NCBI GenBank assembly: GCA_963709585.1
Contig: CAVPXI010000014.1
Location: 352,001-416,000, forward strand
Direction: 5' to 3'
Length of the DNA stretch: 64,000 bases
Source of the DNA: Candidatus Dormiibacterota bacterium
GTDB lineage: Bacteria; Chloroflexota; Dormibacteria; Aeolococcales; Aeolococcaceae
Part shown: positions 1,950-7,087 of the stretch, in pieces
Numbering within the stretch: position 1 is the stretch's first letter
How the letters are laid out: each line of letters starts with the position of its first letter
The notes under the pieces: model-generated
The model's input: only the letters and a program-made list of their open reading frames with translations
What the model was told of the DNA's origin: nothing
The model's database searches: none
Translations under genes and position numbers: made by a program

Positions 1950-2408
1950 TTACAGAGCAAGCGCCTTCACGGGCGCCATCACATGTTCCAGGTCCCAGCT
2001 CACGCCGGGAACGTCAACGTACAGCTCGATCTCGTTGCCGTCGGGATCCAGGATGTACAGGCTGTGGCTGACGGTGTGGTCGCTGGTGCCCACGATATTC
2101 ACGCCCGCCTCCTGACAACGCCGGAGTGCCGCGCGCAACTCGTCGTCCGAGTCGCCCACCTTGAGGCCGAAGTGATAGAGGCCGACGTGCCGTCCGCGCG
2201 GCAGCGGCAGCGCATCCTCGCCCACCTCGATGAGCAGCAGCTCGTGGTGCGTCCGGCCGCTGCTGAAGAGCGCGACCGGCATCCTGCCCAGCGGACCGTC
2301 CTGGCTGGCTTTCAGCTGCTTCCATCCGAGGACATCGCCGTAGAACGCGGCAGATCGCTCGATGTTGTGTACGTACAGGACGAGGTGCCCCAGTTCCTTG
2401 ATCTCCAT
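1950..2408 (-). CDS. VOC/glyoxalase family protein (catechol 2,3-dioxygenase-like)
   Basis: LGHLVLYV...FYGDVLG, HHEL, GLYHFG, DH..SHSLY..DPDGNEIELY; ATG at 2408 preceded by TAAGCT-N7. Confidence 0.9.
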   Translation of the reverse strand: MEIKELGHLVLYVHNIERSAAFYGDVLGWKQLKASQDGPLGRMPVALFSSGRTHHELLLIEVGEDALPLPRGRHVGLYHFGLKVGDSDDELRAALRRCQEAGVNIVGTSDHTVSHSLYILDPDGNEIELYVDVPGVSWDLEHVMAPVKALAL

Positions 2409-2493
2409 GCGGTCAAGCTTACCCGCGAGCCCTCGAGCCAAACAGGGCGGCGTTCGGGGGCACCGCGCCGCGCCGCTGAGCGAGGATGGTTGG

Positions 2494-3915
2494 GTGCGCG
2501 GGCTGCAACTCTCATACCAGCAGATCATCGCGATGATCTACGTGGTCGCCATGTTCATGACCATCATGGATGCGACCATCGTGTACGTCGCCCTCCCGGC
2601 GATGGCTCGGAACTTCGACGTGAGCCCGGCGGCGACCGATGGGGTCGTGGTCGGGTACCTGGTGAGCCTCGCGGTCTGGATTCCCGCGTCGGGGTGGGTC
2701 GGTGATCGGTTCGGCACCAAGCGCACGTTCCTCGCCGCGGTGTCGCTGTTCACCATCGCCTCGGCGCTCTGCGGGCTGTCGCAGTCGGTGCTCGAGCTCG
2801 TCCTCTTCCGCATCCTGCAGGGCGCGGGCGGCGGCATGCTCACCCCGGTGGGCATGGCGATGCTGTACCGCGCCTATCCACCCGCGCAGCGAGCACGTGT
2901 GGCGCGCATCCTCGTGATCCCGACGGTGATGGCCCCGGCGCTGGGACCCCTCATCGGTGGCGCACTCGTCGACAGCCTGTCCTGGCGCTGGGTGTTCTTC
3001 GTAAACGTCCCGATCGGCCTGGCCGCGCTCGTCTTCAGCACGCTGAAGCTCACCGAGCACCGCGAGCGCGCCGGCGAGCGCTTCGACGTGGCCGGCTTCG
3101 TCCTGGCCGCCGCCGGCTTCGGGCTGTTCCTGTACGCGCTCAGCGAGGCGGCGACCCTCGGCTGGGCGTCACCGCTGATCGCCTCAACCGCCGCCGGCGG
3201 AGCGGCGCTCATCGCGATCCTGGTCTGGGTGGAGTTGCATGCCGATCAACCGATGATCGACTTCCGGCTGCTGCGCCACCGCCTGTTCGGGGTGGCCAAC
3301 CTCGCGTCACTGTTCGCCGCCGCGGGATTTCTCGGGCTGCTCTTCGTCGCGCCGATCTGGTTGCAGACCGGCCGCGGACTTTCCGCCCTCGTGTCCGGTT
3401 CGAGCACCGCTCCGGAGGCGCTCGGGGTGCTGGTCTCGTCGCAGCTGGTCGGGCGCCTCTACCCGCGCATCGGCCCTCGCCGCCTGATCAGCGGGGGCCT
3501 CATCGGCGTCACCGTCGCAACCTCCCTGCTCGCATTCCTGTTGAACGGAAACCTCTGGCTCTTCCGGGCGGTGATGTTCTTCGTCGGCGTGGGATGGGCG
3601 TATGTGGTGATCTCGATGAATGCCGGAGTCTTCGCGCAAATCTCACCACACGACACGGGGCGCGCCACAGCGCTCTACAACGCCCAGCGGCAGCTCGCAG
3701 CCGCGCTCGGCGTGGCGACACTCTCGACCATCATCGGCACCCAGAGCGGGACCGCAAGCCTCGCAGGCAACGTCACCGTGTTCCAAATCGCCTTCTTTGC
3801 CGCCGCCGGATTCACCCTGGTCGGCGCGATCATCGCCCTCGCCATCCGAGACCGAGACGCCAACTCAACTATGCGAAGAGCCGCCGCCACCCGAACGGCC
3901 GTCCCGGTCGCCTGA
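2494..3915 (+). CDS. MFS transporter, DHA2 (EmrB/QacA-like) efflux family
   Basis: MDATIVYVALP, GWVGDRFGTKR, FRILQGAGGG, LGPLIGG..WRWVFFVNVPIG; many TM helices; GTG start inferred. Confidence 0.93.
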   Translation: MRGLQLSYQQIIAMIYVVAMFMTIMDATIVYVALPAMARNFDVSPAATDGVVVGYLVSLAVWIPASGWVGDRFGTKRTFLAAVSLFTIASALCGLSQSVLELVLFRILQGAGGGMLTPVGMAMLYRAYPPAQRARVARILVIPTVMAPALGPLIGGALVDSLSWRWVFFVNVPIGLAALVFSTLKLTEHRERAGERFDVAGFVLAAAGFGLFLYALSEAATLGWASPLIASTAAGGAALIAILVWVELHADQPMIDFRLLRHRLFGVANLASLFAAAGFLGLLFVAPIWLQTGRGLSALVSGSSTAPEALGVLVSSQLVGRLYPRIGPRRLISGGLIGVTVATSLLAFLLNGNLWLFRAVMFFVGVGWAYVVISMNAGVFAQISPHDTGRATALYNAQRQLAAALGVATLSTIIGTQSGTASLAGNVTVFQIAFFAAAGFTLVGAIIALAIRDRDANSTMRRAAATRTAVPVA

Positions 3916-3936
3916 GGGTTCTCACCGACGAGCCAA

Positions 3937-3960
3937 GGTCTCCAAAGAAGGAGACCGTTT
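3937..3960 (+). terminator. Short hairpin, possible intrinsic terminator of the MFS gene
   Basis: GGTCTCC-aaagaa-GGAGACC 7-bp stem followed by GTTT, about 20 nt after the stop codon; U-tract is weak. Confidence 0.45.
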
Positions 3961-3961
3961 C

Positions 3962-4146
3962 GCCAGGTCGTCCTGACCGGCGGCTGATCGCCGAGGCGCC
4001 GGCTGGGCCGCCGAGATCAAGGAAGTGACAAGCCCGAGAGGGAGCGCATTCCAATGCGTGACCGAGCGAGGCGCAGTCGCTGACGCCGATATCGGCAAGT
4101 CCAGCCGGATGCAGCGGCGATCAGCCGCCGGTCAGGACTCCTTGGC
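3962..4146 (+). ncRNA. Unassigned structured RNA-like element: long rod with a multi-hairpin head
   Basis: Perfect 24-bp inverted repeat 3970-3993/4115-4138, extended on both sides by pairing with G.U wobbles; head contains CCC-GAGA-GGG, GCGCAT-TCCA-ATGCGT and AGCGA-N7-TCGCT hairpins. Confidence 0.55.
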
Positions 4147-4535
4147 TAGTGCGAGCAGGACTTGGCTTCGCCCGCCAAGTCGCCAGTTTGGAAAGAGTGG
4201 CCGCAACCGCAAGTCCTGACCGCATTCGGGTTGTGGATCGTGAATCCGCCACCCATCAGCTCATCGACGTAATCAATCTCGGCACCCTGGAGATACTGCG
4301 AGGAGTACGCGTCCACGTACACCTTGAGGCCTCCTTCGACGTCGACGACCTGGTCGTCTTCCTTGGGTGGATTCTCATCCAGGCCCATGCCGTACGAGAA
4401 GCCCGAGCATCCACCGGACTGAATGAAAACCCGAAGTCCGAGTGCGCGATCGGCCGGCTGGTCGGCAATGAGGCCCTTGAGCTGCTCACGGGCGGTGTCG
4501 GAGATCGTGACGATGGACGGGGAGGTGATTGCCAT
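4146..4535 (-). CDS. iscA: Iron-sulfur cluster assembly accessory protein (HesB/IscA/ErpA family)
   Basis: GLRVFIQSGGCSGFSY, IDY....GGFTIHNPNA..TCGCGHSF. Confidence 0.93.
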   Translation of the reverse strand: MAITSPSIVTISDTAREQLKGLIADQPADRALGLRVFIQSGGCSGFSYGMGLDENPPKEDDQVVDVEGGLKVYVDAYSSQYLQGAEIDYVDELMGGGFTIHNPNAVRTCGCGHSFQTGDLAGEAKSCSH

Positions 4536-4553
4536 GGTGCTGTCAATCATACG

Positions 4554-5503: not shown

Positions 5504-7087
5504 CTAGTCCGACGCCGAGGTTCCGGCGGCCTCGGCCGCGTATCGCGGGAGGTGGACGTCGTCCGACCCTGCGAAGCGCATCGCCCCGGCGACGAGGTGA
5601 TGTCCGGCGACTTCGTCGATGAGCCGGAGCATCTCCTGACAGATCTGCCGGTAGCTCGGATGCCCCTGCGGAGACGTGCGCAGCTCGATGAGATGCATGG
5701 CCTCGCGCGCATTGAGCTTGATCACGTATCGAACACGGTGGCCGAGCGTGACCAGATAGCCGGCCTGCTGCGGAAAGACGTCGACGATCTCGCGGTACGC
5801 GGCCTCCGCCTCCCGGACGGCGACGTGCCAGCGCTCCCCCAGTCCGGCGTCGACAACCGCGTCGGGGACCTCATACCCGAGCGACGGGGTCAACTCCTGC
5901 CACTGAATCGTGAGCATGCGGTGGCGTTGCAGATCGCGGAACGCGCCGTAGTCGGACACGACCTCGAAGGTGTAGTCGCAGTGCTCGAAGCCGCGTCCCG
6001 GCCGGTGGCGCCGGTTGCCCCGGTGCCCGACGGCCGCGGCGAAGAGCGCCGCCCGCCGAGGCGCCGAGAGCGGGCGCACCGCGGCGAGCAGCCGCTCCTG
6101 GGACGCGTGCGAGTAAGGGAAGAGCGCCGACGCGAGGATGCGATCCTCGCCGTCGCCATCCCACTCGACCAGGGTCACGCCCGTCGGCCCCCACTCGTTC
6201 TCGGGGGCGAGCAGGTCGGCATCGCGGGCGATGGCGGCCGCCGTCTCGCGCAGGTATTCGACCCAGACCCCGCCCCGATCCGGGCGATCCAGCCGGGTCA
6301 GGAACTCCGGGATCAGCCGCTGCAACTCGACGTTGACCAGCTCCGCGTACGCGCGCGCCTCGGGAAGCGGGTGGGCACGCAGACGGAGCACGAGCTGCTC
6401 GTACGCCTGTGGCGATGCGTACATCCCGACGTTGCTGACCGTCCCTGCCGGAAGCAGCCCGCGCATCAGGTCGAGCGCGAGCGCCCGGATCGCTCGCCGG
6501 CGCGCCCTCTCGTCGGCTTCGGGCGGCAGGGTCTCGTCGAGGTGCCGCGCGAGCGGCTCGCGCAACTCCGAATACGTGTCGAAGAGCAGGTCCATCGCCC
6601 GGACGTAGGTCGTCCCCAGCGGCGATGCGAGCAACTCCCGGTCGCGCAGATACCGGTAATGACCGTCGCGGCGATCCGTGTACGGGATGTATCGCGTCGA
6701 CTGCTCCAGGTACGCGGCGAGCCGCCCCCACTCGATTGCCTTGGCGAGCGGCTGGGAGACCTGCTCGCAGGCGAGATGCACACCCCCGAGCTGCGCCACC
6801 GAGTTGTCGCCGTACTCGGCGAGCACGCGTCCGAACAGATCCGAGGCACGCTCGCGTCCGGCGCCGGCATCAACCGCTGGATCGCGGGTGGCGCCGGCAA
6901 GAAACTCGTCGACCAGGAGCCGCCGAAGGCTCTTCGCGCTGCGGCTGTAGCGTGCGAAGAGGGCCGCCGCGGTCACCTGGGGCAGGTTGGTGAGGGCGAA
7001 CACGGGGCGATCGAGGTTGGTCACGTGGGGGGCGAGCAGCCGCTGCTCCTCCGCGGTGAAGGCCTCGACGTGGTAGTCCGCGATCAT
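5504..7087 (-). CDS. thyX: FAD-dependent thymidylate synthase, long two-domain form
   Basis: ALFARYSRS, YGD(D)SVAQL, YLEQSTRY, FRDLQRHR, NARE..HLIELRT..QGHPSYR. Confidence 0.9.
   Translation of the reverse strand: MIADYHVEAFTAEEQRLLAPHVTNLDRPVFALTNLPQVTAAALFARYSRSAKSLRRLLVDEFLAGATRDPAVDAGAGRERASDLFGRVLAEYGDNSVAQLGGVHLACEQVSQPLAKAIEWGRLAAYLEQSTRYIPYTDRRDGHYRYLRDRELLASPLGTTYVRAMDLLFDTYSELREPLARHLDETLPPEADERARRRAIRALALDLMRGLLPAGTVSNVGMYASPQAYEQLVLRLRAHPLPEARAYAELVNVELQRLIPEFLTRLDRPDRGGVWVEYLRETAAAIARDADLLAPENEWGPTGVTLVEWDGDGEDRILASALFPYSHASQERLLAAVRPLSAPRRAALFAAAVGHRGNRRHRPGRGFEHCDYTFEVVSDYGAFRDLQRHRMLTIQWQELTPSLGYEVPDAVVDAGLGERWHVAVREAEAAYREIVDVFPQQAGYLVTLGHRVRYVIKLNAREAMHLIELRTSPQGHPSYRQICQEMLRLIDEVAGHHLVAGAMRFAGSDDVHLPRYAAEAAGTSASD

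Follow-up and report, generated by a model that had tools for sequence, protein, structure and literature searches.

Between a gene for an MFS transporter and a convergent gene for an ErpA/IscA-type Fe-S cluster protein, the 64,000-nucleotide stretch of DNA analysed here (the window) carries a palindrome at 3962-4146. An earlier note on this DNA had taken it for a novel noncoding RNA and had named three candidates: a 6S/Ms1-like RNA, a retron RNA and a MITE-derived RNA. The question is whether this locus holds an RNA gene in its own right or a copy of a repeat. The parts of the element and its two neighbors are as follows.

2362-3915, + strand: MFS transporter gene (MFS_1, E 1.2e-48), the upstream neighbor
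3962-4146, + as the best-folding strand: whole palindromic element, read as a probable fossil MITE from the inverted repeat, the folds and family membership
3962-3993, + strand: 5' arm of outer stem P1, the terminal-inverted-repeat part of the window's subfamily (31-nt arms in the copy alignment, row L051)
3990-4123, + strand: conserved core (covariance model R1, 129.4 bits)
3996-4008, + strand: 5' strand of P2, pairing with 4099-4112 with A4109 bulged (helix 1; double changes in 12/12 pairs)
4010-4018, + strand: 5' strand of P3, pairing with 4088-4096, with a conserved G.A mismatch at 4015/4091 (helices 2 and 3)
4019-4023, + strand: purine loop AAGGA, opposite GACGCC at 4082-4087 (invariant or near-invariant columns, kept in other genera)
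4024-4029, + strand: 5' strand of P4, pairing with 4076-4081 (helix 4; A-U/G-C covariation, 39 versus 58)
4032-4072, + strand: apical part, with P6, an AGA/GAG purine loop, GG/CC pairs with a tandem G.A, and P5 (helices 5 and 6)
4032-4036 with 4067-4072, + strand: P6 (alignment read by eye, unscored)
4044-4049 with 4054-4059, + strand: P5 hairpin, loop UCCA (helices 5 and 6)
4115-4146, + strand: 3' arm of P1, ending in a base shared with the complement of the erpA/iscA stop codon (CTA, 4146-4148)
4146-4550, - strand: ErpA/IscA-type Fe-S cluster protein gene (TIGR00049, 116.6 bits; Fe-S_biosyn), convergent, with its stop codon abutting the element

A repeat finder returned inverted-repeat arms of 32 nt (3962-3993 and 4115-4146) that are 91% complementary, and the inner 24 nt, described earlier as a perfect inverted repeat, are indeed fully complementary (3970-3993/4115-4138). 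As + strand RNA, the region 3950-4160 folds into one long rod with a minimum free energy (MFE) of -140.3 kcal/mol. The mean of 200 dinucleotide shuffles was -89.1 kcal/mol (sd 4.67), and none of them folded as well (z -10.96). The - strand of the same region folds more weakly (-118.7 kcal/mol, z -7.2). Thus, the long irregular rod is real, and so are the G.U pairs and the tandem A.G/G.A mismatch noted on its + strand; the pairing proposed to extend it outward (3962-3967/4141-4146) and inward is also present in the MFE structure. From the outside in, the fold passes from a variable P1 through P2, P3, the AAGGA/GACGCC loop, P4, P6 and purine-purine loops to a tip hairpin, GCGCAY/RUGCGU. This tip (GCGCAU-UCCA-AUGCGU, 4044-4059), one of three hairpins that had been read in the head, is supported by relatives. 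The other two, CCC-GAGA-GGG and AGCGA-N7-UCGCU, are absent from the MFE structure, and in relatives their bases pair elsewhere: by eye, the alignment places 4032-4036 with 4067-4072 and 4024-4029 with 4076-4081. Because longer-range pairs replace the two hairpins, the head is a continuation of one irregular hairpin and not a multihairpin junction. The observation itself, an inverted repeat with a structured hairpin, is confirmed.

The element measures 185 bp, under the size of about 300 bp expected of a MITE. Only short ORFs of 58 to 64 aa overlap it, and they look unconserved. Its + strand is likely part of the 3' untranslated region of the MFS gene. Behind erpA/iscA lie genes for BrkB and ThyX (Thy1). 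The ThyX-like ORF (window 5504-7087, - strand) is long, at 527 aa, and its Thy1 domain falls in two stretches, the better one at residues 306-494; a duplication or fusion may have given rise to it.

Known RNA families did not account for the hairpin, in agreement with the earlier failure to match it by eye. Scanned permissively against Rfam, 3700-4400 returned five matches (E values of 0.67 to 9), all far below the gathering scores; the best reached 15.6 bits where the gathering score is 50. No Rfam match at E <= 0.1 came from five loci with other copies. For 6S and Ms1 there was no Rfam match in 3700-4400 up to E 10, and the 6S model RF00013, which is insensitive and finds 6S in 5 of 14 control genomes, found nothing in the whole genome. 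We considered a divergent SRP RNA and rejected it because an ordinary SRP RNA lies elsewhere in the genome (77.6 bits). No sigma-70-like promoter or intrinsic terminator was found in 3700-4400. Structure and distribution likewise lend no support to the proposal of a 6S/Ms1-like RNA. The rod has only small internal loops in both the MFE and the centroid structure, and the large central open bubble of 6S and Ms1 is absent. The number of copies ranges from 0 to 22 per genome, which is at odds with one conserved housekeeping copy; relatives carry several, and in several genomes of the same genus the element is eroded or was not found.

We then turned to the copies elsewhere. BLASTN detected the element in 34 of 61 related genomes, the window's own included. 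A covariance model (R1; 30 pairs) was built with the written structure on 22 aligned copies (A1), and the collection assembled with it (A3) holds 105 matches, corresponding to 104 distinct copies at 96 loci. In the genus sample, R1 matched 32 of 42 genomes, with one to four copies each, some in tandem. In the order sample it matched 61 of 151 genomes, namely 60 of 106 in family f1 and 0 of 44 in family f2, with the highest counts in G066 (22 matches in a 1.5-Mb genome), G151 (14), G109 (13) and G086 (10); the order-sample tally, like that of the ndk locus below, includes two unpublished genomes (G073 and G076), on neither of which any particular claim depends. Thirteen of the 151 genomes in the phylum sample matched, among them three other families of the class, with 19 matches in G250 and four matching genomes outside the class context of the order, one of them with a weak match. 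A scan of 185,579 species genomes for an exact pattern returned 12 loci, labeled Candidatus Dormibacterota or Dormibacteria (8), "bacterium" (2), "Chloroflexi bacterium" (1) and "Candidatus Acidiferrales" (1). The copy on the contig with the last label (L115) could be a binning error or a transfer. In those portions of the literature on noncoding RNAs and repeats of Dormibacterota, on IS1182 MITEs and targets and on REP sequences near stop codons that were available, we met nothing bearing on the repeat family. As far as those portions go, this family of the uncultured soil lineage Dormibacteria is undescribed.

The structural conservation in homologs that the earlier note had wanted checked by covariation is present across the 104 copies, with changes on both sides in 28 of the 30 model pairs. 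Standard pairs fill 92.1% of the cells in A3, against 72.9% in shuffles and 30 to 37% with the partners slid, figures that lean towards the structure because the alignment was fitted to the model, the slid controls being nevertheless far lower. The covariation score is 0.532 against 0.190 and was reached by 0 of 500 shuffles.

Some copies are duplicated in tandem: L058 (G005:C3), at about 1300-1640, and copies on G013:C172, G012:C2, G004:C4, G126:C38 and G151:C128. L058 has three units of about 109 nt, with the 3' strand of P2 kept only in the last. Tandem duplication occurs at the locus of a 174-aa gene described below and at a few others, and partial core fragments lie upstream of some copies.

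The ends of the copies resemble those of transposons in part of the family. Extended inverted termini of about 20 to 25 nt, flanked by CTAG, CTA or TA, are found in about 30 of the 104 copies, the window's copy among them with its 31-nt arms. About 70 of the 104 ("class A") stop at the base of the core hairpin, without visible inverted termini or a duplication. One 19-nt terminus recurs 22 times in G081, for the most part in inverted pairs spaced 163 to 181 nt apart, and many contig ends of G066 carry a related terminus. Many G066 contigs stop about 100 to 140 nt into the repeat, which thus fragments the assembly. A complete insertion sequence of about 1.5 kb (G066:C32:1-1486, L157) has CTAG on both sides, and its first and last bases are those of the termini of the small G066 copies. 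It encodes a 422-aa protein with DUF772 and a DDE transposase domain that scores 365 bits against NF033551 (IS1182 family, cutoff 270). By eye, its interior holds no counterpart of the structured core. A second IS1182-type element, in G250, also has CTAG flanks (transposase, 291.8 bits against NF033551). On another G250 contig (L168, G250:C154, 1-180), a core copy directly adjoins the left end of an IS1182-type element inserted at CTAG.

The copy behind ndk in G081 is an insertion polymorphism: of 30 orthologous loci retrieved, 29 were scanned and one was set aside, and the copy is present at 1 of the 29. CTAG flanks it on both sides, and the ndk stop codon lies within the first of the two. 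We infer from the shared ends only that an IS1182-type transposase would move the family. A search of 5 genomes, three of them high-copy and all in assemblies 82 to 97% complete, yielded no Y1/RAYT transposase (PF01797); among 14 known genomes, the control search found it in 6.

At the window's own locus the copy is single and worn. R1 finds one real copy in this genome (129.4 bits; the only other match has 20.6 bits, E 0.37), and BLASTN of the element against the same genome gave only short chance matches, the three inspected lying inside coding regions. Thus, the dispersed copies with target-site duplications that the earlier note would have taken as the mark of a MITE or REP occur in the family as a whole but not in this genome, which has one copy. 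No target duplication is recognizable around it. At the same locus in L062 and L109, the alignment read by eye shows CCTTAG direct repeats outside the arms; the equivalents in the window are mutated and now extend the hairpin. Other genomes have lost more of the element: G019 and G001 keep only its 3' half at this locus, and G017 only the outer stem. A contig from RNA library X7, which differs from the window by 0 to 3 letters, joins 3968 to 4118 and skips 3969-4117 (149 bases), so that an environmental population is polymorphic for the presence of the core. These losses indicate that the core is dispensable at the window locus. In the runs that are clearly RNA (X5, X6 and X7), no contig spans the intact core, and assembled contigs cannot give strand, ends or level. 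The one contig that spans it comes from X1, whose status as RNA is a guess.

In the five genus genomes searched, the window type of terminus occurs with up to two mismatches only at orthologous loci, matches with three mismatches are at control level, and no insertion sequence matching the window's subfamily was found. The G066 transposase has no match in the window's genome. Because the copy is single, with no recognizable duplication and no transposase in its own genome, its membership among MITEs rests on homology of the core and on its relatives.

The placement of the copies relative to genes is strongly biased. Where a neighbor lies within 60 nt on the 3' side, it is convergent for 68 copies and codirectional for 5; with orthologous loci collapsed, it is convergent at 42 of 47 distinct loci (42 versus 5, p = 2.5e-8). 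The stop codon of the convergent gene lies inside the duplicated target or 0 to 3 nt from the base of the hairpin. Where the element separates tandem genes, it runs antisense to them at 16 distinct loci and sense at 3. The convergent genes are mostly housekeeping genes, including those for ribosomal proteins S4, S10, S13, S17, L27 and L28, GroEL, FtsZ, GyrB, Ndk, PPDK, ClpX, SufB, LeuRS and others; 33 of the 41 proteins scanned had a family hit. For copies with ends, stop-codon abutment arises because the target contains TAG. However, a TAG-containing target leaves the orientation bias and the roughly 70 copies without visible ends unexplained. Most simply, the orientation bias would reflect selection against the stabler, Shine-Dalgarno-like (AAGGAGG) + strand RNA inside host transcripts.

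In three genera, copies occupy the same locus behind a conserved 174-aa gene, with the start codon of the neighboring gene 13 to 87 nt from the core. The 174-aa gene (L060:982-1506, + strand; orthologues in L055, L130, L148 and L137) encodes 160 to 181 aa that mostly end in ...FWREFRLHP, had no Pfam or NCBIfam match, and is followed by a gene for an alpha/beta hydrolase resembling S33 aminopeptidases. In G250, two copies (L165, G250:C1, local 1501-1634 and 2800-2933) lie just upstream of likely ribosomal protein genes, which we take, from the likeness of their N-terminal sequences, to be rplB and rplV (L2 and L22). There the terminal repeat places a GGAGG roughly 9 nt before each start codon; on the mRNA strand, this terminus would pair with the other terminus, beside the upstream stop codon.

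The fold favors one strand throughout the family. Over the 30 model pairs in 104 copies, G.U occurs 305 times and A.C 55 times, and in 100 of the 104 copies the + strand folds more stably (means, -68.9 versus -55.5 kcal/mol). The G.U excess is the same in every gene context and neighbor orientation, and the skew at four-fold sites in the window's genes is small (GC skew, -0.063). We therefore rejected mutation bias as its main cause, and transcription-linked mutation in particular is unlikely. Within the genus, single-sided stem changes at one locus show no bias (G.U 14, A.C 11), so most of the excess resides in old wobble pairs at specific positions. What the class conserves is the core with its purine-rich loops, whereas the termini differ between subfamilies. 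This conserved interior with variable termini is the reverse of the usual MITE pattern.

We conclude, with a probability of roughly 0.8, that 3962-4146 is an old, eroding copy of a class-wide Dormibacteria family of palindromic MITE-type repeats and not an independent small-RNA gene. The novel RNA gene proposed earlier thus gives way to a fossil MITE of a new class-wide family, and of the three candidates named then, a MITE derivative is the only one that fits. The family would consist of palindromic MITE-type repeats of about 125 to 185 bp spread through the class Dormibacteria, whose full members have terminal inverted repeats beside a CTAG/TA-type target duplication and enclose a conserved irregular hairpin core. 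An IS1182-family insertion sequence that shares termini with at least one subfamily presumably moves that subfamily, and insertions would land on stop codons in these GC-rich genomes because the target contains TAG or TA. The window's copy would have landed behind the erpA/iscA stop codon in an ancestor of the genus and then lost its target duplication; it now appears to stand without a sister copy or a cognate transposase in its own genome. Its transcription is most likely passive, as part of the convergent MFS (+) and erpA/iscA (-) transcripts, whose 3' untranslated ends it would form, and at most it may be a hairpin that ends or protects both.

Several points speak against a MITE: the single copy in this genome, the class A copies, for which a transposase-based origin is at most conjectural, the internal conservation, the strand-specific fold, the orientation bias and the loci shared by three genera. 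Together they indicate selection that a purely selfish DNA transposon leaves unexplained. One possibility, which we think has a minor chance of being correct, is that the core is a strand-specific functional module of RNA or single-stranded DNA, as old as the class, that is provided with interchangeable IS1182-type ends and kept antisense behind housekeeping stop codons. If so, it would represent a new type of domesticated structured repeat, marked by G.U pairs at specific positions and by purine-rich loops (AAGGA/GACGC, tandem G.A). It might be a protein-recognized hairpin controlling the transposase or the ends of neighboring transcripts, or the substrate of an unrecognized route of mobilization.

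Somewhat better placed, though still short of probable, is that hosts keep the element as a cis-acting RNA module, a 3'-end or intercistronic hairpin that would stabilize or terminate the transcript or couple translation; this is compatible with a MITE origin. A 3' end that abuts a convergent stop codon at 42 of 47 distinct loci, neighbors that are mostly housekeeping genes (33 of 41 scanned proteins with a family hit), copies kept at the 174-aa-gene locus in three genera, strong covariation, and G250 termini that supply GGAGG before the putative rplB and rplV starts would all suit such a module. However, the RNA that is sense to those genes is the weaker-folding strand, with A.C where the other strand has G.U and with pyrimidine-rich loops. 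The hairpin lacks a terminator-like U tract, the window locus tolerates loss of the core, and single-sided stem changes within the genus are unbiased (14 G.U, 11 A.C). The strand specificity could point instead to a single-strand-DNA hairpin element with an active + strand, moved as REP/REPIN are with RAYT or as IS200/IS605 elements are, and the G.T wobbles conserved at particular positions, the fixed orientation and the many copies without a target duplication are in line with this. It is nevertheless quite improbable, since the Y1 transposase (PF01797) is found in 0 of 5 genomes, three of them high-copy, against 6 of 14 controls, and the copies with ends resemble a DDE-type MITE. By textbook geometry, moreover, genes co-oriented with replication would make the folding strand the leading-strand template and not the lagging one.

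An independent trans-acting + strand small-RNA gene, either 6S/Ms1-like or an antisense transposase regulator like RNA-OUT of IS10, has in its favor the rod-like fold of the + strand, its purine-rich internal loops and tandem G.A pairs, the strong covariation, and the absence of 6S from the genome by an Rfam model that is insensitive (5 of 14 controls). Against it are 0 to 22 copies per genome, a core deleted in close relatives and copies antisense inside putative ribosomal protein operons. No promoter-like site was found in 3700-4400, the 174-aa-gene locus has no room for a promoter because the start codon lies 13 to 87 nt from the core, and the RNA-library contigs, a poor measure of level, have no high depth over the element compared with erpA/iscA. 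We give this explanation very little weight. For a retron-type msr/msd RNA, closed by a1/a2 repeats and served by a reverse transcriptase encoded elsewhere, only the long closing inverted repeat speaks, and this reading is extremely unlikely: the neighbors are MFS, ErpA/IscA, BrkB and ThyX genes with no adjoining reverse transcriptase, dozens of copies are dispersed behind unrelated genes, and copies have transposon-type ends.

Thus, the window's hairpin is real and its folding is conserved, yet it is a lone, eroding copy of a repeat and not a new RNA gene. Strong folding and covariation do not by themselves prove an RNA gene; copy number across a family and the structure of the ends need to be checked as well. 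The repeat family both breaks assemblies and marks gene ends. Three of its features are unusual among MITEs: the structured core is conserved class-wide while the termini vary, the fold favors the strand antisense to the adjacent gene, and abutment on the stop codons of core genes is nearly exclusive. Should these features reflect function, the family would offer a tractable example of mobile hairpins joining operon architecture.

Several known systems resemble the family in part. ERIC or IRU elements of enterobacteria are imperfect intergenic palindromes of about 127 bp that vary in copy number, are transcribed near gene ends and form long RNA hairpins. The Dormibacteria repeats are likewise imperfect intergenic palindromes with variable copy number and a long hairpin. 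However, the two have no sequence similarity, the Dormibacteria family has a strong orientation bias and stop-codon abutment, and one of its subfamilies shares termini with an IS1182-family element, whereas we know of no transposase for ERIC. Correia elements (NEMIS, in Neisseria) and RUP (in Streptococcus pneumoniae) are MITEs of about 100 to 155 bp; they have terminal inverted repeats, duplicate a TA-containing target and are often cotranscribed with their neighbors as hairpin RNA. Their termini are the conserved part, whereas the Dormibacteria family conserves an internal purine-loop core across the class and varies its termini by subfamily. The bcr1 repeat of the Bacillus cereus group, about 155 bp long, is a small mobile repeat whose predicted RNA structure is kept by compensatory changes. 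It is comparable as a small mobile repeat with a conserved structure but differs in lineage, target and ends, and to our knowledge it does not abut stop codons. REP and REPIN sequences with RAYT are extragenic palindromes near stop codons that form strand-specific hairpins in many copies without target duplication. The Dormibacteria unit, in contrast, is a single hairpin of 125 to 185 nt and not a 20- to 40-nt REP or a doublet, RAYT (PF01797) was found in 0 of 5 genomes, and some copies have DDE-type ends. The IS1182 family offers the likeness in ends, since the autonomous element in G066 has the terminal bases and CTAG flanks of the G066 MITE copies. It differs in that the structured MITE core has no counterpart in the G066 insertion sequence and that the window's subfamily has no such partner in the five genus genomes.
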